A program made the position numbers and the translations under genes. The notes beneath the pieces were generated by a model that saw nothing but the letters and a program-made list of their open reading frames with translations, had not been told where the DNA came from and searched no databases. DNA of 57,827 nt from a virus (lineage: Duplodnaviria > Caudoviricetes). The stretch covers positions 1 through 57,827 of IMG/VR virus record IMGVR_UViG_3300025536_000018; one strand, written 5' to 3'. Positions 1-57,827 of the stretch are shown here, in pieces; the stretch's first letter is position 1, and the number at the start of each line of letters is the position of its first letter.

Positions 1-12
1 GCTCAGCGCCCC
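1..12. repeat. Left terminal 12-nt repeat, probable cohesive end (cos)
   Basis: GCTCAGCGCCCC is identical at 1-12 and 57816-57827. The reverse complement GGGGCGCTGAGC resembles the 12-nt cos I recall for phage Chi. A lambda-type terminase and portal are present. Confidence 0.8.
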
Positions 13-282: not shown

Positions 283-330
283 CCCGGCCGCCCTGCCGAT
301 TCGCGGCCTAGCTCCAGGGGCAAGGGGCAC

Positions 331-365
331 AAAGAAAAACGCCCCGGCCATATCAGGCCAGGGCG
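331..365 (-). terminator. Intrinsic terminator ending the left-arm operon
   Basis: Minus strand CGCCCTGGCC-TGATAT-GGCCGGGGCG followed by TTTTTCTTT. Confidence 0.8.
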
Positions 366-398
366 CTAGGGTGCGACTCGGAAGTTAGTTCTATGTGT

Positions 399-1187
399 CT
401 AGGGGTAGAGTAGCTTGACCGCCTCCAGGCCCGCCCGCTCCAGGTTCGTTAGGTCCGCCCTGCCGTCCAGGCTGGCCAGGGCCTCCCGCCATAGCTCCAG
501 GCGCTCCAGGCGTAGGGCCTCCCGTTCCTCCCGCTCCTTTGCCAGGCGGTCCCGCTCTATTGCCCGCTCCGCATCGCGTGCCGCCTCATCGGCCTTGCGC
601 TTGGCCAGGGCCGACTCCATCTCCGCAACCGTGGGAAGCTGGCCACGTTCAAAGGCCGTCCAGGCCGCCGCCGCCATGGCTTCCTTAGCCGTGAAATGCA
701 CGGGCCAGAATATCACGCGACTCGGTTCGCTATGCCCGCCGTTAAGCCACCGCTTAGCCTCAAACGAGTCCACCCGACTCCCGGATATGCAAGGCCCGTT
801 TTCATAGTAGCTATGCCGTTCCTCTGGACCCTTCAGGCGGTAGAGCTTCCAATGCGTGCCCCAACCCGAATCGCAAGACACATAGCCCCGCAATTCGCCG
901 TCAATCATCACGTCATAGCTAGAGCGCTGATAGGCGTTTATCGGCTCCGCCCGCTTCGCCAGGTCCAGGCGCGGCAACGTGGCGAGCTTCGCCTTGCCTA
1001 TGGCTTGCGCGCATTTAGGGCACGTCGCCAGGCGCGGGGAATCGAACGGCGCGGCCCGGTCATGTAAGCGCGACTCGCCGCACCACGATTCGGCCATGCC
1101 GCGCCCCGGATCATCCGCAAAGGGGTATTGATCCGGACTCCATCGCCGGAAGGCGCAAACCTTATGAACGCCGCGACTCCTGCCCAT
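399..1187 (-). CDS. Hypothetical early protein (Cys/His-rich N-terminus, C-terminal coiled coil)
   Basis: ORF 399..1250; ATG at 1187 overlaps the upstream stop (TAATG). Confidence 0.75.
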   Translation of the reverse strand: MGRSRGVHKVCAFRRWSPDQYPFADDPGRGMAESWCGESRLHDRAAPFDSPRLATCPKCAQAIGKAKLATLPRLDLAKRAEPINAYQRSSYDVMIDGELRGYVSCDSGWGTHWKLYRLKGPEERHSYYENGPCISGSRVDSFEAKRWLNGGHSEPSRVIFWPVHFTAKEAMAAAAWTAFERGQLPTVAEMESALAKRKADEAARDAERAIERDRLAKEREEREALRLERLELWREALASLDGRADLTNLERAGLEAVKLLYP

Positions 1188-1639
1188 TAGACCGACTCGC
1201 CGATGATATGGGGGCCGCCCTCCAGGCCGGAATAAAGCGCCGTTTGCCACGGGATCGAATAGAAGCGGAAAGCGCCCGCCGTGCCCACGGCCTCAAATAT
1301 CGCCGCGTGCTGGCAATCGCCCGTTTCCTGATATCCGACAAGCCGGAAGCCGTGCAAGGCGGCCACCTTATCGGCCACCGGCTCCAGGCGCTTCCTATAT
1401 CGCTTGTCAGTGAGGAGTCGCACGCCGGAAGCGTGCAAATCGCCCCGCACTAGCGGCTTGTGGCGCTCCAGGGCGTCCAGGGCGGCCCGCACTTCGTCCG
1501 CCGTGGCGGCGCACCTGTTGCCGCTCCAGCCCCGCGCTAGGCGGGTGACGTGATTCAGGGCCTTGCGGAGTCCTATCACGTTCGTTTTTGTGACGTTGCC
1601 CGACTCAATCGCGGCAAGGTGACGTTGCATTGCGTTCAT
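1187..1639 (-). CDS. Hypothetical early protein
   Basis: 150-aa ORF with AAGGAG RBS in the repeated leader. Confidence 0.8.
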   Translation of the reverse strand: MNAMQRHLAAIESGNVTKTNVIGLRKALNHVTRLARGWSGNRCAATADEVRAALDALERHKPLVRGDLHASGVRLLTDKRYRKRLEPVADKVAALHGFRLVGYQETGDCQHAAIFEAVGTAGAFRFYSIPWQTALYSGLEGGPHIIGESV

Positions 1640-1670
1640 TTGATTCGCTCCTTTGAAAGCGGGTTAAAGT

Positions 1671-1865
1671 TCAATTGTCGCCAGGGCGATTCGTGCCGCC
1701 GATGAACCGGCCCGCGCCGCCCTGAAGGCGAGTCGCGGCGATATCGTCCCGGCGTTGCGATTCCGCACATTCGCGCTTGATCCGGCTCCACAGTGTCGCG
1801 CCGCCGATGATAGCGGCGAAGGTGACGAGTCCGACAAGGGCGGCGATAAGGTCAGGTCCAAACAT
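1671..1865 (-). CDS. Small membrane protein
   Basis: One hydrophobic segment (LIAALVGLVTFAAIIGGATLW); GGAG RBS favours ATG at 1865. Confidence 0.6.
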   Translation of the reverse strand: MFGPDLIAALVGLVTFAAIIGGATLWSRIKRECAESQRRDDIAATRLQGGAGRFIGGTNRPGDN

Positions 1866-1898
1866 TCGAATCACTCCGTTCCGTTGTTACTCACTCCG

Positions 1899-1933
1899 TA
1901 TAGCGGAGAAAGTCCTAACAGGAAGTTAATTCC
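1899..1933 (-). promoter_or_regulatory. Left-arm promoter cassette: palindrome plus CtrA-like box plus GCTATA -10
   Basis: CTAA-N7-TTAA at 1915-1929, palindrome variant at 1921-1933, -10 at 1899-1904. Confidence 0.6.
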
Positions 1934-2408
1934 GGCCGATTATCTCCGCCCCGGCAAGGTTGCCCTCCCGGCCGTCCGCCACCCGATAGCCCCGGATCAT
2001 AAGGAAGCCGGAGTCCACTTCATAACCAGTGACGCAACAAACGACTCCGCCGATTGCCCGCACTTCCTGCCCTACCGTGGGCACGGGTTGCTTACCGCTC
2101 CACACTGGCCAGCCGCCACGGTTCGCCAGGCGCTTGCCTTTCCACTTCGCTTTGACGTGGGGCGGGATCAAGCCGCGCCGGATATCGGCCGCCACCTTTG
2201 CCGCCCGCTCCGCTTTGACATACTCCCGCAACTTGCGAGTCGCGTTAGGGCCGTGGAAGGCGACAACGTGGCCCGTTGCCGGGTTGAACCGATAGAAGCG
2301 GGAAAGGTGCGCCGCATCGCCGCACTTGATCCACTGGCCAGGCTGGAGCTTTGCGCGGGCGCTATCGTCCAGGGTCCAGATATCAGGGGCAGGGGTAAAC
2401 TTAGCCAT
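1926..2408 (-). CDS. Hypothetical early protein
   Basis: 160-aa ORF with GGAG RBS. Confidence 0.8.
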   Translation of the reverse strand: MAKFTPAPDIWTLDDSARAKLQPGQWIKCGDAAHLSRFYRFNPATGHVVAFHGPNATRKLREYVKAERAAKVAADIRRGLIPPHVKAKWKGKRLANRGGWPVWSGKQPVPTVGQEVRAIGGVVCCVTGYEVDSGFLMIRGYRVADGREGNLAGAEIIGRN

Positions 2409-2486
2409 TGTGAGTCGCTCCGTTGAAAGCGTTTCCGATAGACCTTCTATAGCGGATGATTCGTTAATAGGAAGTTACTTCCGCCG
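2409..2486 (-). promoter_or_regulatory. Left-arm promoter/leader cassette (paralogue of 4520-4595)
   Basis: Minus strand GGAAGTAACTTCC-TATTAAC-GAATC...GCTATAG...CGCTTTCAACGGAG-ATG. Confidence 0.7.
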
Positions 2487-2640
2487 CCTTTCGATCATCC
2501 ACCGACTCGCGGTCCAGGTTGACATAATAGCGCCAGGCTCCGCCGCGCGACTGTTGCCGGAATAGTGCCGAATTAGCGAAGCCGCCCCGGTCATACCATT
2601 CCTTTTTAGTGATTCGCTCTTTCCGCACCTTTTGCGCCAT
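2464..2640 (-). CDS. Small hypothetical protein (58 aa, below the ORF-track cut-off)
   Basis: MAQKVRKERITKKEWYDRGGF...KAAEVTSY*; GGAG RBS in a TTTAGACGGAG leader. Confidence 0.65.
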   Translation of the reverse strand: MAQKVRKERITKKEWYDRGGFANSALFRQQSRGGAWRYYVNLDRESVDDRKAAEVTSY

Positions 2641-2672
2641 TGTCTTGCACTCCGTCTAAAGTGATTCGGAAG

Positions 2673-2819
2673 TTAGTTCCGATATGCGCGGCCGTTCCGC
2701 CGCCGTTCAATCACGCCCGCCGCCTGTTTGCGGATGCGAGCGATTCGCTTGTGCTCTTCCCACGTCGCGACGTGCTGGCAATGGTTGCCGTCAAAATAGG
2801 CCGCCTCACTGTAGAGCAT
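2673..2819 (-). CDS. Small hypothetical protein (48 aa)
   Basis: MLYSEAAYFDGNHCQHVATWEEHKRIARIRK...; GAAGGGA RBS; fills the gap in the operon. Confidence 0.5.
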   Translation of the reverse strand: MLYSEAAYFDGNHCQHVATWEEHKRIARIRKQAAGVIERRRNGRAYRN

Positions 2820-3057
2820 TTTCATTCCCTTCCGTTGTCCGATGATTCGACACTAGGGCCGATTCGTTAACAACTGGTTTATAGTGGCGGCCTTGCATCC
2901 ATCCGGCGCAATAGACCGCAACCAGGGCGAAGGCGACGGCGTAGAGCAAGCAACCGCCGACTCCTTGCTTCCCCTGCCGTTTCTTCCGCTCTAGCGCTTC
3001 CTGTTGCTCCAGGGTGCGCCCCCACGGCAGAATCTCTAAGGGCTTATCGTCTTTCAT
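2806..3057 (-). CDS. Small membrane protein
   Basis: One TM segment (GCLLYAVAFALVAVYCAGW); start MKDDKP. Confidence 0.55.
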   Translation of the reverse strand: MKDDKPLEILPWGRTLEQQEALERKKRQGKQGVGGCLLYAVAFALVAVYCAGWMQGRHYKPVVNESALVSNHRTTEGNENALQ

Positions 3058-3171
3058 GGCTTGGCCTTTCCCTTCCGTCCGGATCATGCCGCGCCCACAT
3101 TGCCCGCAAGAGCACGACTCGGCGTTCCAGGGCGTCCAGGGGCGGCCGTGGAGCCTCCAGGCGCTCCGCCC

Positions 3172-3426
3172 TCACTGTGGCCACCATTCGGGCCGCTCGC
3201 CTTCGTCCAGCCATGCCAGGCAATCGGCGGCCATGGCCACGGCGGCGGGGCCGTCATCATGTTCCGGCACGTCCGAGTCGATCAAGTCGCCCGACTCGTC
3301 ATACTCAAACCAATAGGCGCGAGTCGAACGAAGGCTAGAGCAAGGCCAGCCGCCGTTAAACAGGGCAACGCCGACTTGCGAGACTCGGACCTTGCGCGGC
3401 CCTACGGTGCTAAGGATATCAGACAT
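3172..3426 (-). CDS. Hypothetical early protein
   Basis: TAATG coupling at 3426. Confidence 0.7.
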   Translation of the reverse strand: MSDILSTVGPRKVRVSQVGVALFNGGWPCSSLRSTRAYWFEYDESGDLIDSDVPEHDDGPAAVAMAADCLAWLDEGERPEWWPQ

Positions 3427-4055
3427 TAGGCGGATTCCTTCCCGCAAATATAGGTTTGCCCGTCATCGCCTAGATATGCCTCCAGGCTATGCCGCGACTC
3501 CACTAGGTCGCTAAGCGCTTCGCCGATTGCGCGATTCTCTTCCCGGTCATCGCTCCAGGAGTCCCGGTCCCGGAAGCCCGCGCCGTGGCCCGCCCGCTCT
3601 AGGTAAAGGTCGCTTCCCATTTGCTCCAGGGTGTAACGGTTCGCCAGGTCCAGGCCCGCTAAGGCCCCGTCAGGAACGGCCGCCAGGTGCGCCGCGATAG
3701 CCGCCAGGAACGACTCGCACTCCGCCACGGCCGCCCGAAAGGTGGAGTCGGGGCAATCGTAAATCGTGCCCGTGTCGCGAGCTTCCCGGCCTTCGCTAGT
3801 CGCTTCGTCCGACTCGCTATGCTGCAAGTCCTGAAGCAAGACGGCCAGGAACGACTCGGCCATAGGGCACGCCCGAAAGGCGGCCTTGCGCTCCCGTTCC
3901 CGGTTGTCAGTTTCCAGGGCGGCGCGGGCGGCCTTCAGGGCTTCCACCTTGTCCGCCACAATCGGCGAGTCCCGGCGCTCCAGGCCGTCCGCTTGCACGA
4001 AGCAAGGCCGATAGCCGCCGCCCGTCTTTTCGGTCCAATAGGTTTGCACGGCCAT
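3426..4055 (-). CDS. Hypothetical early protein (G-x-D-L-Y-L-x-R-x-G-H-G-A-G-F motif)
   Basis: 209-aa ORF, translationally coupled; motif of a type I recall from phage early proteins. Confidence 0.75.
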   Translation of the reverse strand: MAVQTYWTEKTGGGYRPCFVQADGLERRDSPIVADKVEALKAARAALETDNRERERKAAFRACPMAESFLAVLLQDLQHSESDEATSEGREARDTGTIYDCPDSTFRAAVAECESFLAAIAAHLAAVPDGALAGLDLANRYTLEQMGSDLYLERAGHGAGFRDRDSWSDDREENRAIGEALSDLVESRHSLEAYLGDDGQTYICGKESA

Positions 4056-4519
4056 TATTCCGACTCCTCTTCGTCATAGTCGCCAGCCGTCAAAGCCGCC
4101 GCCAGCGTGGCCAGTTCCGCGCGTAGCTCTTCGCGTTGCTCTTCGTAAACTTCGCGAAGGTAAGCGCCGGAGTCCGACTCGATTCCCCAAAGGCCCGCGC
4201 TCCGTAGCTCCAGGATTCGGAAAGACTGGCCACCGGCCGGGATAAAGACAACCGCCCGCGCCACGACTCCGACATATTGCCAGGCGTCACCTAGCCACCT
4301 GTTATAGCGGAGCCGCGCCTTTTGCGTTTCCCGCTTCAGGTCCGCCGCCGTCTTGCCTTCGCCGATGAATCCCGCGTCTTGCGGATCAAGCGAAGGCCAA
4401 TAGCCGTCTTGCATTTGATCCGGGGCGCTTGCGTGATTGTCGCGGGGCGTTTCCATTGTCCAGGATATCGCCAGGCGTTGCGGCCGGGTGGCCGAGTCGA
4501 TCATGTTAAATTGCGTCAT
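4055..4519 (-). CDS. Hypothetical early protein (W-x-YVGV...LWGIES motif)
   Basis: 154-aa ORF with GGAG RBS. Confidence 0.8.
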   Translation of the reverse strand: MTQFNMIDSATRPQRLAISWTMETPRDNHASAPDQMQDGYWPSLDPQDAGFIGEGKTAADLKRETQKARLRYNRWLGDAWQYVGVVARAVVFIPAGGQSFRILELRSAGLWGIESDSGAYLREVYEEQREELRAELATLAAALTAGDYDEEESE

Positions 4520-4595
4520 TTGATTCGCTCCGTCTAAAGCGTTGCCGATAGGCCCTTGATAGGGGGCAACCGTTAACAGGAAGTTACTTCCGCCG
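4520..4595 (-). promoter_or_regulatory. Left-arm promoter/leader cassette
   Basis: Near-copy of 2409-2486; GTAA-N7-TTAAC on minus strand overlapping the perfect palindrome at 4579. Confidence 0.7.
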
Positions 4596-4800
4596 TAAAA
4601 ATATACACCGGGGCGCTAGGCTCCGTCGCGGCCAGGCCCGCCTGGTTCCACCTGTTGACTAGCTCCAGGAAGTCCAGGCGGCCGCCCGTCCGATTGCCGC
4701 CGCCTAGTTGCATGGCGACTCGCACCGGGTCCAGGCTAAGCGATTCGACGTGGCGGGAGCCGTCAGGCCGAATCGCGGTGCGGGTGTAACGGTGCGCCAT
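4573..4800 (-). CDS. Hypothetical protein
   Basis: 75 aa, TAATG coupling, ends in AEVTSC encoded by the palindrome. Confidence 0.7.
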   Translation of the reverse strand: MAHRYTRTAIRPDGSRHVESLSLDPVRVAMQLGGGNRTGGRLDFLELVNRWNQAGLAATEPSAPVYIFTAEVTSC

Positions 4801-5669
4801 TAGGCGAAGTCCGCCGCATCGCCCGCCGCGTCCAGTTCATCCCGGCCGCCATAGCGAGTCGCGTTATAGAGCTTCCAGGCCGAGTCCTTGTCCAGTTCCG
4901 CCGACTCCTTGCCGTCTTCCAGGCGGATGATTCGGCCGGTCATGGCATTGGAGTCGAACTTGAACCGATAGCGCGGGCGCGGGCCGTGCATTTGCTCCGC
5001 CACGTTTTCCAGGCGCAACCCGGAGTCGGTCCAGTCAATCGACTCGTCATCGGCCACGGCGTCCGCCATGATCGAATATTGAAAGTGCGCCGAGTCGCGG
5101 TCTCCGCTTCCCCATTTTGTCACAGTGTCGAAAGCCGCGCCGAGTCGGTTATTCTGGCGAAAGTCTCCGCTGATATACCGTTGCCCCTCCAGGCGGCGAC
5201 TCTGCCCGCGCGGGTTTGCCACGAAGGCGGCGGCATACTGGCCAAAGCCGCGCCCGCCGTAACCTTCGTGCTCCAGTTCCGCGCGGATCATGCAAATATC
5301 ATCGCCGAGTCGGGTGAAAAAGGCCAGGTAAACGGTAGGGCCGAATCCTTCGCCTTGCGACACGTCCAGCTTAGCGAAGTAAGGGCCGCCTTTTAGCTCG
5401 CCTTCGTCTTTGCCCACGTTGAGCGCGGCCGGGACAAAGCGGGTGTAAGTGCCCTTGAATTGATAGAAGGCAATCGGCTGGAACTTGCGCGCCAGGTCCA
5501 GGGCTTCCCATAGGTTCGCCACGCGGTAGCTAATCCAATGGCCGAGTCCCGCGCTTGTCAGTTGCACGGAACGGGGCGGCACGGGTGCGAGCGTTGCTAG
5601 GGCGTGCTCGCGCTCCAGCTTCGCCAGGTCCGCCGCTTGCTTGGCCTTCATTTCTTCTAGGGTCATCAT
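4800..5669 (-). CDS. Hypothetical early protein
   Basis: 289-aa ORF with the repeated CGCTTTAGACGGAG leader. Confidence 0.8.
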   Translation of the reverse strand: MMTLEEMKAKQAADLAKLEREHALATLAPVPPRSVQLTSAGLGHWISYRVANLWEALDLARKFQPIAFYQFKGTYTRFVPAALNVGKDEGELKGGPYFAKLDVSQGEGFGPTVYLAFFTRLGDDICMIRAELEHEGYGGRGFGQYAAAFVANPRGQSRRLEGQRYISGDFRQNNRLGAAFDTVTKWGSGDRDSAHFQYSIMADAVADDESIDWTDSGLRLENVAEQMHGPRPRYRFKFDSNAMTGRIIRLEDGKESAELDKDSAWKLYNATRYGGRDELDAAGDAADFA

Positions 5670-5710
5670 TGCGAATCACTCCGTCTAAAGCGTCATTGCT
5701 ATGCGAAGTG

Positions 5711-5758
5711 ATTAGCCCCGGAAGTCCTAACAATCAATTAAAATCGGAAGCAACTTCC
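5711..5758 (-). promoter_or_regulatory. First promoter of the left arm (CtrA-like box plus GCTAAT -10, palindrome upstream)
   Basis: Minus strand TTAA-TTGATTG-TTAG at 5727-5741, -10 at 5711-5716, palindrome at 5746. Confidence 0.6.
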
Positions 5759-6046
5759 GGCCGCCGTCCAGGCGCTCCAGGCTCCAGGCTCCAGAGAATA
5801 GAATCGCGCGGCGCGCATAGGCGCGGCCGGGTTAACGAGTCACCCCACAAAAATGGTTAACGCGATTTTCATCATTAACGCGGCGGTAAGGTTAACGCAA
5901 AACTTTTGCCCTCCGATCCAGCCGAGTCCCATTCTGGCACACCCGAATCGCCAACCCCCCTGTAGTGGTAATTCTGGAATAAAAACCAGTCCGCCCCACG
6001 GCCACGGCGCTGACGTTTGGCGGCTCTCCGAGGGTATGCGGTCTGG

Positions 6047-6075
6047 TTGACAATTTTTCCAGCCGCGTTTATACG
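6047..6075 (+). promoter_or_regulatory. Sigma70-type promoter
   Basis: TTGACA-17 nt-TATACG upstream of the rightward gene block. Confidence 0.7.
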
Positions 6076-6114
6076 AACCACATAACCGATTCCCACCAAG
6101 AAGGAGAAAGCCCC

Positions 6115-6402
6115 GTGGCCGACACCAATGCCACTATCACTTCCATGGCCAAGCAACTGAAGGAGGGAGAATCGGTCAGCCGATCCAAGCGTATCCCCCT
6201 GGACGAACTCGATCCCAAGAAGGTATCGAAGAAGCTGGCCTCCATGCGGAACAGCATGAACCAGATTGCGGCACGGGCGCGTGAAGCAACCGGAAGTGAC
6301 TTCCGCGTCGAGAGCGGCCAGTTCATCACCTATGACGGTGCGGCCGTTGTCCTGACCTGTGTGCTGACGTGCATGGAGGATGACGGCGAAGACGATATCT
6401 GA
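6115..6402 (+). CDS. Hypothetical protein
   Basis: GTG start, AAGGAG RBS, acidic C-terminus DDGEDDI. Confidence 0.8.
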   Translation: MADTNATITSMAKQLKEGESVSRSKRIPLDELDPKKVSKKLASMRNSMNQIAARAREATGSDFRVESGQFITYDGAAVVLTCVLTCMEDDGEDDI

Positions 6403-6426
6403 CCACCAGCACCGGAGGACCAACCA

Positions 6427-6690
6427 ATGTGCATTGAAAAAGTTATGAGCTACAGCTTTGCGGGCAAGCTCTTCCCTACCGAACTCGACGCGGTGAAAGC
6501 CGCCCTCTCGGAGATCGGCACTCGCCTCATCAAGGACTACTCCACCAATCCGGTGAAGGGTCTTCTCGAACTCGGCCAGGACATCTCCGCTCTTCGCGAG
6601 CGCTTCCTTGCCCTGTCCCCCGCCCCTATTTCCACGGAAGAGGCTGAAGCAAAAGAGCCTACCACCCTTTCGGAGAAAGCCGATGGGTAG
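6427..6690 (+). CDS. Hypothetical protein
   Basis: GGAGG RBS, phage-like codon usage. Confidence 0.75.
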   Translation: MCIEKVMSYSFAGKLFPTELDAVKAALSEIGTRLIKDYSTNPVKGLLELGQDISALRERFLALSPAPISTEEAEAKEPTTLSEKADG

Positions 6691-14141: not shown

Positions 14142-14444
14142 ATGGCAAAGAAGCCGAAGAAGACCTACGACATCGACAACGATCCCACGTTCGACACCAG
14201 CGAAGCGGCCAAGAGCAACGCGCTGGACCGTCAACTGATTCAACTCCTGGAGCGTATCGAACGCCTCCGGGAAGAGAAGAAGGGAATCGCCGACGACGAG
14301 AAGGATGTCTTCTCCGAAGGCAAGGCGCTTGGCTACGACGCCAAATTGATGCGCGCCATGCTGACGCTTCGGAAGATGAAGCCCGATGATCGCGCCGAAC
14401 TCGACGCGCTCATGGAAACTTATCGCCGCGCCACTGGTTTGTAA
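14142..14444 (+). CDS. gapR: GapR-like nucleoid-associated protein (DUF2312)
   Basis: QL...ERIERL.EEKK.IADD.KDVF.E.K..GYD.K.MR....LRK...DR.E..AL...Y..A.G. Confidence 0.9.
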   Translation: MAKKPKKTYDIDNDPTFDTSEAAKSNALDRQLIQLLERIERLREEKKGIADDEKDVFSEGKALGYDAKLMRAMLTLRKMKPDDRAELDALMETYRRATGL

Positions 14445-14479: not shown

Positions 14480-15676
14480 ATGGAAAAGCTGACTCTGCCG
14501 AAGGCCAAGTTCGCCCACGAACTCACGGCCGCCCCCGTCGATCCGACCATGAAGGCCGCCGAAGCGACCAGCGCCAAGCTGTATCGCGTCCCGGTCTCCA
14601 AGATCAAGGTCATCCCCGGCTTCAACGTCCGCGTGCAGTCGCCCGACTACATCGCCCACCGTGACGCCATCCGCGCCAGCATCGCCAGCAACGGCTATGA
14701 CTCGACCAAGCCGCTCGCCGGTTACGTCGCGAAGGAAGGCGATGAGAACGTCATCTATGTCACGGACGGCCACACCCGACTGGACGCGGTGAACGAACAC
14801 AACGCCGATCCCGACACGGCCGAGAAGGATGAGATCAACACCTTGCCGGTGATGGTCCAGCCGAAGGAAGTGTCGCTCACCGACCTGACCGTCATGCTGC
14901 ACACCGCGAACAACGGTCGGCCGCTGACGCCGTTCGAGCTTGGCGTCGTCGTGAAGCGGCTCCTGGCCGAAGAAGGCGCGAAGAAGAGCGAGATCGCACA
15001 GCGGCTCGGCGTCACGTCGCGCTACCTGGACGATGTGCTCCTGCTTGCGAACGCTGATTCCAAGGTCAAGCAGCACGTCGCCAGCGGCGCGGTCTCCAGC
15101 ACCATGGCGATCCAGCTTATCCGCAAGGACGCCGACAGCGCCGCCGAGAAGATCGAAGCGGCCGTGAAGGCGACCGCTGGCACCGGCAAGAAGGCGACCA
15201 AGAAGCACGCCGGTCCCCGGATGCAGAAGATCAAGGTCGCCGTGCCGTTCACCGAAGACCAGGACATGAAGGAGATCGTGAAGGCCGCTGCCGCCGCGAT
15301 CCGCGAAGCCGTCCCGGCCGTCGAAGGCGAGGAAGACGCGAAGCTGGCTGGCGTCAGCGGCACCGTCAACCTGGTGATCGAAGTGCCCGCACCGGAGAAG
15401 CCGAAGCCCGCGAAGAAGGCTCCGGCGAAGAAGGCCGCCGCCAAGCCCGCCAAGGCCGCCAAGGCGACCGACGCGGAGCCGGAGGCGAAGCCCGCCAAGA
15501 AGGCCGCGACGAAGAAGGCCGCTGCCGCCAAGCCCGCGAAGAAGGGCAAGGCCGCCAAGGCTGACATCGGCGTCGAAGGCGCGGAAGCGGTCGGCGAGGA
15601 CGATGAAGTCGCGATCCTGCCGCCGAAGGTCGTGTCGGACGCGGATGTCCCCGACGACGAAGAAGTGGACATCTAA
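14480..15676 (+). CDS. parB: ParB/Spo0J-like protein with HTH and a histone-H1-like Lys/Ala tail
   Basis: GFNVR, VTDGHTRL (GxxR), N..RPLTPFE, HTH SEIAQRLGVTSRYL, AKK-rich C-terminus. Confidence 0.8.
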   Translation: MEKLTLPKAKFAHELTAAPVDPTMKAAEATSAKLYRVPVSKIKVIPGFNVRVQSPDYIAHRDAIRASIASNGYDSTKPLAGYVAKEGDENVIYVTDGHTRLDAVNEHNADPDTAEKDEINTLPVMVQPKEVSLTDLTVMLHTANNGRPLTPFELGVVVKRLLAEEGAKKSEIAQRLGVTSRYLDDVLLLANADSKVKQHVASGAVSSTMAIQLIRKDADSAAEKIEAAVKATAGTGKKATKKHAGPRMQKIKVAVPFTEDQDMKEIVKAAAAAIREAVPAVEGEEDAKLAGVSGTVNLVIEVPAPEKPKPAKKAPAKKAAAKPAKAAKATDAEPEAKPAKKAATKKAAAAKPAKKGKAAKADIGVEGAEAVGEDDEVAILPPKVVSDADVPDDEEVDI

Positions 15677-45486: not shown

Positions 45487-45829
45487 ACTTCTTTCGGATC
45501 ACGCGGGCGGCGAACTCCGGATAGACGACTTTGTAACCGCCAGGATCGAGTCGAACTAACTTCCGATATCCGGCCACGCTATCGGTCCACCATGCTTCGA
45601 CACCCGCGTTCCGCATCTCCCATATCCGGAGGAACTGTTGTGCGCTCGGCTTGCGTCCTGGAACCTTGAACTCGATATGGATGGCACCGCCGCTCACCTT
45701 CTCGGCGAACGTGTCGGGGAAGCCGTTGATCGACTTGCCTTCGACTTGCCAGAAGATGAGATCGTTCGGGCGCGCGTGGTCGTCCCGGCACTCATCCTTT
45801 ATCGCGCCTTCAGGTTGCCGCCGTCCCAT
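45467..45829 (-). CDS. VRR-NUC endonuclease
   Basis: GFPD...IEFKVPG.KPS.QQ. Confidence 0.85.
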   Translation of the reverse strand: MGRRQPEGAIKDECRDDHARPNDLIFWQVEGKSINGFPDTFAEKVSGGAIHIEFKVPGRKPSAQQFLRIWEMRNAGVEAWWTDSVAGYRKLVRLDPGGYKVVYPEFAARVIRKKYGADAC

Positions 45830-46719
45830 GCCGCCATCGCCTTTGCCAGTTCGTCCAGTTCGCCTTCGAGCACTTGCATCGCGGGCTTCAGGCCCGTTCC
45901 GCCGTAGCCGGGATACTTGCGGCGGATCAAAGGCTCCGCCACGCACATCCGCTCGGCTATCGGCAGCGCGGCGTTCTCACCTGACCAGATGTTCCACATG
46001 CAATCCATGAGCGGACTGTTCCCGCGTTCCTTCGCCAGGAAGGCGAGCCGCCACGTCAGCTTCAACTCCAGGTCGGGCATGTGATCCAGCCACAGTCCCG
46101 CGCTTCGGCCGCCCACGTTCCAGTAGGTTTGCTTCAGAAGCATGGCGACGTTCGGCGTGAACAGAAGCGAGCGCCGGATGAACTCTTCGGCCAGGCTGAA
46201 GGGCGGGTTGGTCACGATGGCGTCGATGTCGCCGATCTCCCATCCCCACTTCGCCTTCGGGTGCTCTGCGAGAAAGTCCAGGCCGCCATAGCCGTAGCCA
46301 GGATACTCGCGGAGATCGGTGGCGATCACTTCAAAGCCGTGCCATTCGAGCACGCGAGCGAGGCGACCATCGCCGCACGCCGGTTCCCATATCCGCTTGA
46401 TCGGCGAGCCGTCCGGACGCTTCATCGCCTTCAGCGCGGGGATGAGGCTTTCGGTGCCGTCCACGGGCGTCGGATATAGATCGGCTGGCTTGCGCTCCCA
46501 CTTCTTGTAGGACGTGATGATCGCGTCGGCGATGCTCTGCCCCTTTGCGGTGTGCGGGATCGCTTCGATGATGTCGGAAATAACTTCCGGCTCCTTCAAG
46601 CCCTGGTCCCGCGCCGCCTGGCGGAAGCGCGGTTCATCGGTCACATCGGAAGCGAAAGGGTCCGAACAGAACTCATCCCAAAACAGGGATTCAGAGTCGG
46701 CGTCGAAGTAAAGTCTCAT
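45799..46719 (-). CDS. N6-adenine DNA methyltransferase
   Basis: DLYPTP, motif I WEPACGDG, motif IV IVTNPPF. Confidence 0.88.
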   Translation of the reverse strand: MRLYFDADSESLFWDEFCSDPFASDVTDEPRFRQAARDQGLKEPEVISDIIEAIPHTAKGQSIADAIITSYKKWERKPADLYPTPVDGTESLIPALKAMKRPDGSPIKRIWEPACGDGRLARVLEWHGFEVIATDLREYPGYGYGGLDFLAEHPKAKWGWEIGDIDAIVTNPPFSLAEEFIRRSLLFTPNVAMLLKQTYWNVGGRSAGLWLDHMPDLELKLTWRLAFLAKERGNSPLMDCMWNIWSGENAALPIAERMCVAEPLIRRKYPGYGGTGLKPAMQVLEGELDELAKAMAAWDGGNLKAR

Positions 46720-46721
46720 CG

Positions 46722-48887
46722 TCAGTCCTTCCGGTATATCTTGGTTGTCATGCCAGCGGCGTTGAGCGGCATATCGACGCCGCCTTTCCGCATCCACTTC
46801 TTCTTGCGGATCATCTCCACCCGCATGTTCTCATGAGTATGTTCGTTGTCGTTGACGGCTTCCTCCGAGATCGCTTCGTCGTGGACGTGGCCGATCAAGT
46901 AAAAGCCCGCCTTGTGGAGCGCGAGCATCCCTTCGCGGAGCACGTCGCGCGCAATCGCCTGGACGATGTTTTCGATGAACTTGCCGCCGTGGCTGTTGAT
47001 CCGGAGCCACTTCGAGCCGTTCTGTTGCTTCCCCATGTAGGAGATGCTGTCTTTCCAATAGACGTATCGCTCGCCGGTCTCCTTGTCGATCCCCTCCATC
47101 TTCTCGCGACGGATGCGAGGATTCTTGTAGAAGATGCACCGGCCGGAAGGAAGTTCGCACACCAGGTAGGGCTTCGCCATGTAGAAGCGAACCGGGCCGA
47201 CGCGGCGGGTGCCTCCCCGCTTGATGACGCTCTTGATCGCGTCTTCCAGGTCATACCAGCATTGCGGGATTTCCTTATAGACGCGCCGGAAGGTCGCCAC
47301 GTTTTTGTGCGCCTCCTTGCGGCTCATCTCGACGCCCATGTTCTCGGCGTAGCCCCACAGGCCGGTCTTCTTGCCGTCCTTGATGTCGCCGCCGCCCAAG
47401 CGGTAGCCCGCGCCGAGCGTGGCGGGCTTCGCCATCTTCCGCATCTGCTTGGTGACTTCTTCGTAGAGCACCTTGTAGAGTTCGGTCGCGAAATCCTTGT
47501 AGGCGTCCTTGCCCTCGCGGAAGACGTTGAGCAATCGTTCGCAGCGGGCAACCCATCCGATCACCACCGATTCGATGGAGGACAGGTCGCACACTACCAG
47601 CTTCTTGTTCTTCGGCGCTCGCACGGAAGATCGCACCAAACCGGCCAGGGCGTCGAGCGGTTCCTTGCGATAAATCTGCAACGACTCGTAGTCGTTCTGA
47701 CGGATCACGTCCGTCATCTGTTCGAGTATCTTTTCCGACTCGATGTCTCGCATCATCGTCAGGTTTTGCGGCTGAAACCGGCGACCGGCGAAGCGGCCGG
47801 TGCGGCTGGCACCACAGAACTGGAAGACGTAGCGCATCCGGCCGTCCGTCCCCATAGCTGTAAGGAGCGCCTGGTATTTGCTGGTGCTGGTGCGCGCCTG
47901 TTGCTGCCGGAGCTTCAGCACCGCGACGGCGCGCTTCGTCAGCGTGTCCGGATAGAGTTCGTCCTTCTCCTTCTTCAACTCGCCAGTCTGGATTCCCTTC
48001 CAGGCGGTCAGCACCTTCTTGACCGAATCCTTCTGGAGATCGTTGAACGGATAGCCGCGTGCCTGGAGCCACGGCAATAGCTGTGCGGGCGATCCGGGAT
48101 TAGCCAGGCCGGTCTTCTGCCGCATCCGCTCCAGGAGTTCGTCCTTGCGGAGATTGGCCATGGCCAGGGCGTTTTCCGCGAAGATGCGGTCAATAGGCAA
48201 GCCCCGGTCGTTGATTATCTGGTCGAGCGCGTAGAACTCCCACTCGCGCGCCGGGATCGGATACTTCGGCTTGTCGAGAAGACGCTTGATCTCGCACTCG
48301 GCTTCCACGTCTCGGATGTTGTATTCGATGAACATGCGCCATTCGACCGGGTGCGTCTCGGCCGTGAAGCGTCGGTGCGGCTGGTTCGCCGTCACCCGTT
48401 GCGGCATGGAGAACAGCTTCATGAGCCGCTTGCCTGTGTCGAGCTTGATCTTATCTTGCTCGATTCCCATCTGCCGCGCGATCATGCCGAGATCGCCGGT
48501 AAAGCTGTGCATGTATGCCAGGACCATCGTGCAGCGCCACCGCTCCATGCGCGGATGGATGTTGAGCACGCGGTTCATGATGACGCGCTCGAATTGCGCG
48601 TTGAACGCCCATATCAGGGTGTTGTCATCGTCCAGGGCTTGCCGGAGCTTCTTCGGCATCGGCTCATTGGTGGCGTCCCAATGGCGAACGGGGCCATCGT
48701 CCAAGCGCCAAGCGCACATGAGCACTTCGCATGACGGATGGCTAGAATATAGATCGAGTCCGAACTTGCGAAGGTCGATGTCGCAATAGGTTTCAAAGTC
48801 GATTGATAGGGCGCGCGGGACCACTTCGTCGTCAGGGATATCCCAACGTCCGAACCGTTCTTCGAGTTGTCCGCGTCTAAGTGCCAC
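46722..48887 (-). CDS. DNA polymerase family A with 3'-5' exonuclease
   Basis: SIDFET, AFNAQFER, motif A DLSSIE, motif B K...LGAGY, motif C HVHDE. Confidence 0.93.
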   Translation of the reverse strand: MALRRGQLEERFGRWDIPDDEVVPRALSIDFETYCDIDLRKFGLDLYSSHPSCEVLMCAWRLDDGPVRHWDATNEPMPKKLRQALDDDNTLIWAFNAQFERVIMNRVLNIHPRMERWRCTMVLAYMHSFTGDLGMIARQMGIEQDKIKLDTGKRLMKLFSMPQRVTANQPHRRFTAETHPVEWRMFIEYNIRDVEAECEIKRLLDKPKYPIPAREWEFYALDQIINDRGLPIDRIFAENALAMANLRKDELLERMRQKTGLANPGSPAQLLPWLQARGYPFNDLQKDSVKKVLTAWKGIQTGELKKEKDELYPDTLTKRAVAVLKLRQQQARTSTSKYQALLTAMGTDGRMRYVFQFCGASRTGRFAGRRFQPQNLTMMRDIESEKILEQMTDVIRQNDYESLQIYRKEPLDALAGLVRSSVRAPKNKKLVVCDLSSIESVVIGWVARCERLLNVFREGKDAYKDFATELYKVLYEEVTKQMRKMAKPATLGAGYRLGGGDIKDGKKTGLWGYAENMGVEMSRKEAHKNVATFRRVYKEIPQCWYDLEDAIKSVIKRGGTRRVGPVRFYMAKPYLVCELPSGRCIFYKNPRIRREKMEGIDKETGERYVYWKDSISYMGKQQNGSKWLRINSHGGKFIENIVQAIARDVLREGMLALHKAGFYLIGHVHDEAISEEAVNDNEHTHENMRVEMIRKKKWMRKGGVDMPLNAAGMTTKIYRKD

Positions 48888-57815: not shown

Positions 57816-57827
57816 GCTCAGCGCCCC
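57816..57827. repeat. Right terminal 12-nt repeat, probable cos
   Basis: Identical to 1-12. Confidence 0.8.

Follow-up and report, generated by a model that had tools for sequence, protein, structure and literature searches.

Why is one operon at the left end of a phage genome filled with GANTC, the site of alphaproteobacterial adenine methylation? The question is raised by the virus record IMGVR_UViG_3300025536_000018, which was analysed over its entire length of 57,827 bp (hereafter the window) and represents a whole viral genome, its completeness being rated 98% and its GC content 0.61. Its leftmost operon, called the arm in the following, lies in a dense zone (298-5950) in which exactly 80 GANTC were counted (14.15/kb), versus 153 in 5951-57827 (2.95/kb) and none in 1-297; an earlier note on this DNA, made from the letters alone, had put them at about 80 in the first 5.95 kb. 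The dense zone coincides with a single leftward transcription unit, which reaches from a control region to a terminator (Table 1). We are highly confident that the arm carries a selected, operon-bounded array, the word of which is GASTC (GAGTC or GACTC) and not generic GANTC.

Composition predicts far fewer sites than are found: the GC content of the arm (0.619) is close to that of the genome (0.610), and 19.4 sites are expected from base composition and 19.5 from dinucleotides. Among the 16 palindromes of the form XYNY'X', GANTC shows the highest arm/rest ratio (4.8x), it tops a list of 32 palindromes scored against a codon-aware null (z = 10.4), and an unbiased comparison of 5-mers between arm and rest is led by GACTC/GAGTC (z about 17). 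The 12 words that differ from GANTC at a single position all lack enrichment in the arm (0.48-1.26x). Sixty-six of the sites are coding and fall into all three frames (33/18/15); the other 14 are spread over 697 non-coding nt, which are at least as site-dense as the coding part. The earlier note had named a codon-preserving shuffle as a check, and the enrichment withstood it: synonymous-codon shuffling of the 12 arm genes gave 31.4 ± 3.4 sites versus 66 seen, codon-order shuffling gave 14.7 ± 3.5, and resampling of the arm genes with the codon frequencies found outside the arm gave 28.7, with 0/1000 replicates reaching 66 in each case. The shuffle control detected no deviation in 29 non-arm genes (112 versus 105.6 expected; 18/100 shuffles reached 112). 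The heptamers singled out in the earlier note account for 35/80 sites (CGAGTCG 9, CGACTCG 13, TGATTCG 7, CGATTCG 6). Spacing in the arm is roughly geometric, as if random, with about one site per 70 bp, and a search for periodicity in it found none. That the enrichment is real, local, located at the DNA level and under selection is supported by these data.

At the synonymous level, GASTC is in excess in the arms of the window and of three isolated relatives, the phages R22L, V7 and Carli (z = 10.8, 13.8, 10.5 and 4.8, respectively; 0/400 each), and an excess of GAWTC (A or T in the centre) is absent from the same four arms (z = 1.7, 1.3, -0.5 and -3.6). In Carli, GAWTC is even significantly depleted (2 versus 10.1) while GASTC is enriched, and the signal is therefore masked when GANTC is tested as one motif. 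A more direct test is offered by Asp/Glu-Ser dipeptides, in which any central base that keeps the amino acid is open to choice: the Asp or Glu codon preceding TCN ends in G or C in 111/126 cases (88%), versus 473/852 (56%) in other contexts (p = 1.3e-13), and each of four lineages gives a significant difference by itself. Serine following Asp or Glu is itself written TCN in the arms in 126/136 versus 138/250 cases (p = 1e-15). The most enriched heptamers of the pooled coding arms are SGAGTCS, and the coding strand carries the word in either orientation (26/25 in the window, 22/22 in V7, about equal in G001-G003, three closer relatives). The idea that generic GANTC with a free central base is the target, as the earlier note had it, thus fails on both counts, since only GASTC is in excess and the central base is chosen. 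CcrM has no central-base preference in vitro (PMC3287173).

The word also occupies the ribosome-binding sites (RBSs). The start codon has a GANTC no more than 18 nt away in 36/52 arm genes, versus 10/148 non-arm genes; arm by arm, the proportions inside and outside are 8/12 versus 1/21 in the window, 13/14 versus 3/52 in R22L, 10/13 versus 5/42 in V7 and 5/13 versus 1/33 in Carli. In the relatives, the start-proximal site is mostly the fusion GGAGTC, which is found at 0/51 GGAG-type RBSs outside the arms (three annotated relatives). In the window, a conserved leader cassette precedes six of the arm genes, and a GANTC stands between GGAG and ATG in five of these six (four TGATTCG and one TGAGTCG, read on one strand), just as the earlier note had described for most genes with a leader. 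We read the RBS sites as saturation, a site being made wherever it is cheap; the copies at RBSs may also act in the RNA.

Distribution among relatives and methyltransferases

Judged from its lambda-type portal, gpA-type terminase and E-type capsid protein and from portal identities of 63% to the Erythrobacter phages R22L and R16L and of 46-50% to Burkholderia phage AH2 and Salmonella phage Chi, the window phage is a Chi-like (Casjensviridae-type) siphovirus; PolA, DUF2800 and Prim-Pol are also encoded (Pfam), and the gene maps of the window and of Casjensviridae members are collinear, in line with membership of the family. Its host is most likely a member of Sphingomonadales; the phages with a homologue of one arm protein are all Sphingomonas or Sphingobium phages, and a Sphingopyxis chromosome encodes a further homologue of it.

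A dense arm is present in 10/10 informative Chi-like genomes or contigs of, or resembling, phages of Alphaproteobacteria, namely four isolates with recorded hosts (Erythrobacter twice, Sphingomonas, Ruegeria) and six uncultured ones including the window; two loci of the metagenome scan, L026 and L027, were left out for having too little arm-side DNA, and a profile scan of viral contigs with a DUF7609 alignment found no new loci. The dense GASTC arm is missing from all 5 relatives with hosts in Burkholderia, Salmonella, Cronobacter, Aeromonas and Pseudomonas (AH2, Chi, JC01, LAh_7 and UF_RH7), all of which possess the syntenic arm without GASTC enrichment. The arm/rest ratio of GASTC amounts to 4.9-9.0 in 8/8 carriers (window, G001-G003, R22L, R16L, Carli, V7), versus 1.2 in AH2, 0.4 in Chi and 0.3 in UF_RH7, with flat profiles in JC01 and LAh_7. 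Two further contigs agree, L028 holding 50 GASTC over 4231 arm-side nt versus 3 over 8940 nt downstream, and L025 17 over 2756 nt versus 4 over 3294 nt. Codon-aware tests gave 99 versus 43.1 expected in R22L and 53 versus 27.4 in V7 (0/300 each). The boundaries are sharp: in the collinear left arms of R22L and R16L, about 15 GANTC/kb fall to 2-5/kb at the arm boundary, a minus-strand unit next to the arm of V7 is not enriched (8 versus 7.0), and in G002 the DNA past the distal end of the arm is sparse in sites again.

Common descent of the arm genes is little in evidence. Only 1/12 window arm proteins matches the R22L arm (32 aa) and blastn gave no hit between the two; G001-G003 share only patches of the window arm, L028 shares no arm sequence with it, and a megablast of the arm against phage records returned no match. 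The arms of R22L and R16L are 99.6% identical over 4.7 kb, and these two phages were therefore counted as one lineage. One protein family can be followed across the boundary; with its gene inside an arm, it holds 7 GASTC each, over 630 nt in the window and over 711 nt in Carli, versus 2 over 477 nt in Lacusarx and 1 over 501 nt in a Sphingopyxis chromosome, both outside arms. The array is thus conserved across lineages with mostly unrelated arm gene content, and it is restricted to phages of Alphaproteobacteria.

Host distribution and the methyltransferases (MTases) carried by these phages support a link of the array to alphaproteobacterial GANTC adenine methylation. The window encodes a putative N6-adenine MTase (Table 1), which matches phrog_799 'DNA methyltransferase' (1e-39), shows motif I (EPACGDG) and, after it, motif IV (VTNPPF), and is a homologue of PhiLM21_p027 (BLASTP 31% identity over 150 aa, E 1e-15; tblastn also matches, and a check of the matched gene showed it to be p027); phmmer against PDB and a NCBIfam search gave nothing useful for it. 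PhiLM21_p027 was experimentally found to be GANTC-specific and is unrelated to CcrM (Decewicz et al. 2017, PMC5537653), and MTases of its type are typical of the replication modules of alphaproteobacterial phages (PMC5537653). The window shares its p027-type gene with R22L, R16L and G001-G003, V7 encodes a CcrM-like enzyme instead (Pfam; best PDB hit 6pbd, CcrM, 8e-27), and Carli an MT-A70 enzyme; in the window genome, searches found neither a CcrM-class MTase (PF01555) nor, in six frames, GcrA (PF07750). Since the phage encodes its own adenine MTase, of a GANTC-specific family, the mark need not be inherited from the CcrM of a previous host, as the earlier note had supposed. However, carrying the p027 family is not sufficient for the array.

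A parallel involving another word is found outside the alphaproteobacterial phages. Chi and Aeromonas phage LAh_7 encode Dam-family MTases, and their syntenic arms (44.3-49.5 kb in Chi and 1-13 kb in LAh_7) hold 46 GATC versus 28.4 and 103 versus 70.9 expected after codon control (0/300 in both). GATC ranks first in Chi and second in LAh_7 among 32 arm palindromes; outside its arm, Chi is GATC-depleted, and in the same phage GATC occurs near 5/13 arm starts versus 3/44 starts elsewhere. JC01, AH2 and UF_RH7, which are without Dam-family enzymes (AH2 and UF_RH7 encode C5 MTases), show no GATC enrichment in the arm. These data point to the word of the arm tracking the adenine MTase of the phage, the effect being modest.

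Two observations on GATC stand apart from this comparison. In Cronobacter phage JC01, GATC is avoided genome-wide (66 versus 120.7) and not in the arm (17 versus 18.3). The dense arm of V7 (1-6 kb) is GATC-poor (18 in 6 kb versus about 9/kb elsewhere), which may follow from a lower use of ATC codons, as computed for the window arm.

Candidate explanations of the array

In our reading, the leftward terminal operon has become saturated with GASTC, the G/C-centred subset of CcrM/HinfI-type GANTC, through selection on the DNA itself, sites having arisen where they are cheap: Asp/Glu-Ser is written GAS-TCN, and in most arm genes the Shine-Dalgarno sequence GGAG is extended to GGAGTC or followed by GANTC. 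We propose that the sites would be N6-adenine methylated by the p027-type enzyme of the phage and/or by host CcrM, and the array may couple expression of the operon, or its occupancy by proteins, to the methylation state of the template, so that, for example, a fully methylated infecting genome could be distinguished from freshly replicated copies. A candidate reader of the mark is host GcrA with sigma70 RNA polymerase, the only known one, which would fit partly. For this reading as a whole, a selected GASTC array that works via methylation as an operon-wide cis element, we see the chances as about even.

Several points weigh against it. The G/C-centre preference is explained neither by CcrM nor by the Caulobacter GcrA consensus. 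The GANTC specificity of the window MTase is putative, as it derives from 31% identity, and PhiLM21 (1.06 GANTC/kb) and Caulobacter phage Kronos (1.4/kb), which possess the same MTase family, show no dense block. Three unrelated MTase families accompany the array, and the common factor may therefore be a host protein or be unrelated to methylation. The GATC parallel is weak (about 1.5x) and absent in JC01, and the possession of CcrM or Dam by particular hosts is background and no result of this analysis.

A wider form of the proposal would be an operon-wide epigenetic barcode in Chi-like phages, the terminal operon being saturated with the word of the phage's own orphan MTase, that is, GASTC in phages of Alphaproteobacteria and GATC in relatives that encode Dam, for example Chi and LAh_7. 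We offer this generalisation tentatively and consider it rather improbable as it stands; if true, a reader would tell methylated infecting from replicated genomes and switch the operon accordingly, and template discrimination of this sort is undescribed in phages.

The earlier note had proposed a more specific scenario, in which host GcrA on methylated GANTC recruits sigma70 RNA polymerase to the arm at entry, with the methylation brought along from the previous host. Some features of the window do suit it: 44/79 arm sites (56%) fit YGAKTCK on one strand versus 46/153 elsewhere (30%; p = 0.0002), TGATTCG occurs 9 times in the 5.65-kb arm versus 7 times in the other 52 kb, and the leader sites TGATTCG (4) and TGAGTCG (1) are the consensus and the third-ranked Caulobacter GcrA heptamer, respectively (PMC4647560). 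For Brevundimonas GcrA, the sole flank preference reported is slight and favours a C directly ahead of GANTC (PMC7987155); in the window, position -1 has a raised share of C. Beyond the window, however, the YGAKTCK-type flanks hold up in Carli only; their share is significantly reversed between arm and rest in R22L (22%/40%), R16L (19%/41%) and G003 (29%/59%), and an excess is absent in V7, G001 and G002. In the pooled coding arms, the excess lies in SGAGTCS while TGATTCG, the top Caulobacter GcrA heptamer, is not enriched (3 versus 3.4), and the five leader sites are not independent, because they are copies of one cassette. Furthermore, 66/80 sites are intragenic, whereas GcrA acts at promoters (PMC4647560), and the phage carries its own MTase and is without a GcrA gene. 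The scenario therefore finds no support beyond the duplicated leader of the window, a role of the arm in DNA entry is likewise unsupported, and we consider the scenario unlikely; a sigma70 promoter scan of the arm, for which an E. coli-type model was used, was uninformative. GcrA nonetheless remains a candidate as reader because its flank preference is not conserved between genera (PMC7987155).

Only slightly less credible, and unlikely as well, is an array that works independently of methylation, in which a sequence-specific host or phage protein would bind GAGTC in both orientations and coat or mark the operon, for example as a silencer, anti-silencer or roadblock. A selected central base is what one expects of an asymmetric 5-bp reader and not of a GA-N-TC reader, and the use of both orientations on the coding strand and the company of three unrelated MTase families agree with such a protein. 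Against it, the array follows the occurrence of GANTC methylation among hosts, an adenine MTase is encoded by all carriers, and the GATC parallel in the Dam-encoding relatives points towards methylation. No candidate protein emerged either: in a co-occurrence search for a phage-encoded reader, a GapR-like gene was the only non-structural gene shared by R22L, Carli and V7 that all five relatives outside the alphaproteobacterial group are without. We rejected it as the reader, its co-occurrence being confounded with host class; no sequence specificity is known for GapR.

An RNA-level signal appears improbable. T4 RegB, which cuts GGAG in early mRNAs, provides the model, and GGAGUC at initiation regions together with internal GASUC would mark the mRNAs for a nuclease or a translational regulator. 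Such a signal would account for the concentration of sites near arm starts and for the confinement of GGAGTC to RBSs inside the arms, but most sites are internal and occur in three frames and both orientations, and sites are present also in the non-transcribed part of the control region. The enriched word set is closed under reverse complement, which argues for recognition of duplex DNA. Finally, a non-adaptive origin, in which composition, codon usage, duplicated cassettes or a common ancestry of the arm genes would have produced the array as a by-product, and to which the copied leader sites and the near-identity of the R22L and R16L arms could be ascribed, is contradicted and highly improbable, given that no codon-preserving control reproduces the count, that arm GC is near that of the genome, that the arms are non-homologous and that one protein family is GASTC-rich inside arms and poor outside.

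Organisation of the arm and the genome ends

The arm gene calls of Table 1 are our own and were made from the GC content at third codon positions (GC3) and from RBSs; all 12 small genes lie on the minus strand, which corrects an earlier reading of the region. None of the 10 arm proteins included in a Pfam scan matches any family, and 2/6 arm proteins tried against PHROGs match entries of unknown function.

Table 1. Features of the window around the GASTC array, with position, strand and basis
Feature	Position	Strand	Basis or remark
12-nt terminal repeat	1..12	+	Identical to 57816-57827; read as cohesive end
GASTC/GANTC-dense zone	298..5950	.	80 GANTC = 51 GASTC + 29 GAWTC
Intrinsic terminator closing the operon	338..367	-	12-pair stem then T run; about 340 nt inside the left cohesive (cos) end
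Arm gene	1187-399	-	GC3 and RBS
Arm gene	1639-1187	-	GC3 and RBS; conserved leader 1640..1665
Conserved leader cassette (..TTTAGACGGAG, then GANTC, then ATG)	1640..1665	-	One of six copies
Arm gene	1865-1671	-	GC3 and RBS; conserved leader at start
Arm gene	2408-1926	-	GC3 and RBS; conserved leader at start
Arm gene	2640-2464	-	GC3 and RBS; conserved leader; left out of Pfam scan
Arm gene	2825-2673	-	GC3 and RBS; left out of Pfam scan
Arm gene	3087-2806	-	GC3 and RBS
Arm gene	3426-3172	-	GC3 and RBS
Arm gene	4055-3426	-	GC3 and RBS
Arm gene	4519-4055	-	GC3 and RBS; conserved leader at start
Arm gene	4800-4573	-	GC3 and RBS
Arm gene	5669-4800	-	GC3 and RBS; conserved leader at start
Divergent control region, 445 nt, between leftward arm and rightward operon	5670..6114	.	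Conserved blocks
First gene of rightward operon (DUF7609)	6115..6402	+	Anchor for locating relatives
Putative N6-adenine DNA MTase	45799..46797	-	Between PolA and helicase

The conserved blocks of the control region include a TTGACA -35 element for the rightward operon, and the region contains five GANTC inside the dense zone (5673, 5801, 5837, 5924, 5945) and one more at 6088. Its minus strand also carries, at 5830-5900, four GTTAA(C) repeats and one TTAACCAT, a CtrA-type half-site, which is unique in the genome and not conserved in G001-G003; a full CtrA box (TTAA-N7-TTAA) occurs nowhere in the genome. A close relative, a 58.4-kb contig of run X2, differs from the window in 147 letters over 1184-2642 and 2644-6500 (5,316 nt), has the segment 536-1184 replaced, and contains 278 extra letters exactly at a leader-cassette boundary (window 2642/2644). 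The position of this insertion suggests that cassettes may be swapped at the conserved leaders.

Position 1 was read as the cos end because of the terminal repeat, because the start of the AH2 record differs from the terminal 12-mer of the window at one position, and because both window ends are contiguous in G002, with an overlap of about 12 nt; the arm thus abuts the left cos end. Just inside this end, at 200-290, there are about four CTAG-containing iterons (GGATCATCG..CTAGG), which are possibly terminase-binding sites; 13/54 CTAG copies of the genome are located in the first kb and 28/54 in the first 6 kb. Against the synonymous null, only one arm palindrome is more enriched than CCNGG (75 versus 44.7, z = 5.3), which is also the top palindrome in the arm of LAh_7, and CCTGGAG-type repeats cluster in the window arm and at 5775-5782. 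The GapR-like nucleoid protein gene (PF10073, 3.5e-25; 14142-14444) adjoins a ParB/KorB-like gene (14480-15676).

Known methylation-reading systems and biological meaning

GATC clusters that are read via their methylation state are known from oriC/dnaA with SeqA and from the P1 pac site, where they occupy 0.15-0.25 kb of non-coding DNA. They resemble the array in being a local excess of the site of an orphan adenine MTase, by which fully methylated is told from hemimethylated DNA, but the array of the window spans a whole multi-gene operon, and we know of no such reader in Alphaproteobacteria. The GcrA/CcrM promoters of Caulobacter and other Alphaproteobacteria share with it the GANTC site family, the host class and a plausible methylation-dependent readout, and the leader sites of the window match top GcrA heptamers. 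However, these promoters are single sites in GANTC-avoiding genomes, whereas here about one site per 70 bp extends over a 5.6-kb operon, mostly within genes and with a G/C-centre preference that has not been reported for CcrM or GcrA. The Caulobacter genome has 4542 GANTC sites (PMC4647560), and in alphaproteobacterial genomes all GANTC subsets are under-represented (log2 of observed/expected about -1.78; PMC8919816). The phage MTases of CcrM-like specificity (PMC5537653) include the homologue of the window enzyme, with equal motif order and likewise situated in the replication module; that work is concerned with the enzymes and not with a target-site array, and PhiLM21 itself avoids GANTC genome-wide, as does Kronos. 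The clustering of CtrA sites in alphaproteobacterial phages (Mascolo et al. 2022, PMC9437464) is also a borrowed host cell-cycle signal with positional asymmetry, but has another motif and architecture than the GASTC array; motif models of GcrA, SciP and DnaA showed no asymmetry in any phage subset of that study. Pelagiphages are reported as GANTC-depleted (PMC9516812), and a term search of the paper on the closest isolates (PMC12185513) found no mention of GANTC. A GASTC array of this kind is apparently undescribed, as no prior description was found in the literature searched.

Phages and their alphaproteobacterial hosts normally avoid GANTC, and an operon with a 5- to 35-fold local excess does the opposite. 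The presence of the site in RBSs and in synonymous choices signals strong selection for an undescribed function, and the preference for G or C in the centre suggests that the reader or writer may have a specificity which the present view of CcrM and GcrA does not include. Because four carriers have been isolated, R22L and R16L (Erythrobacter), Carli (Sphingomonas) and V7 (Ruegeria pomeroyi DSS-3), these matters are directly testable, and the array gives a concrete purpose to seek behind the widespread and so far unexplained 'CcrM-mimicking' phage methyltransferases.

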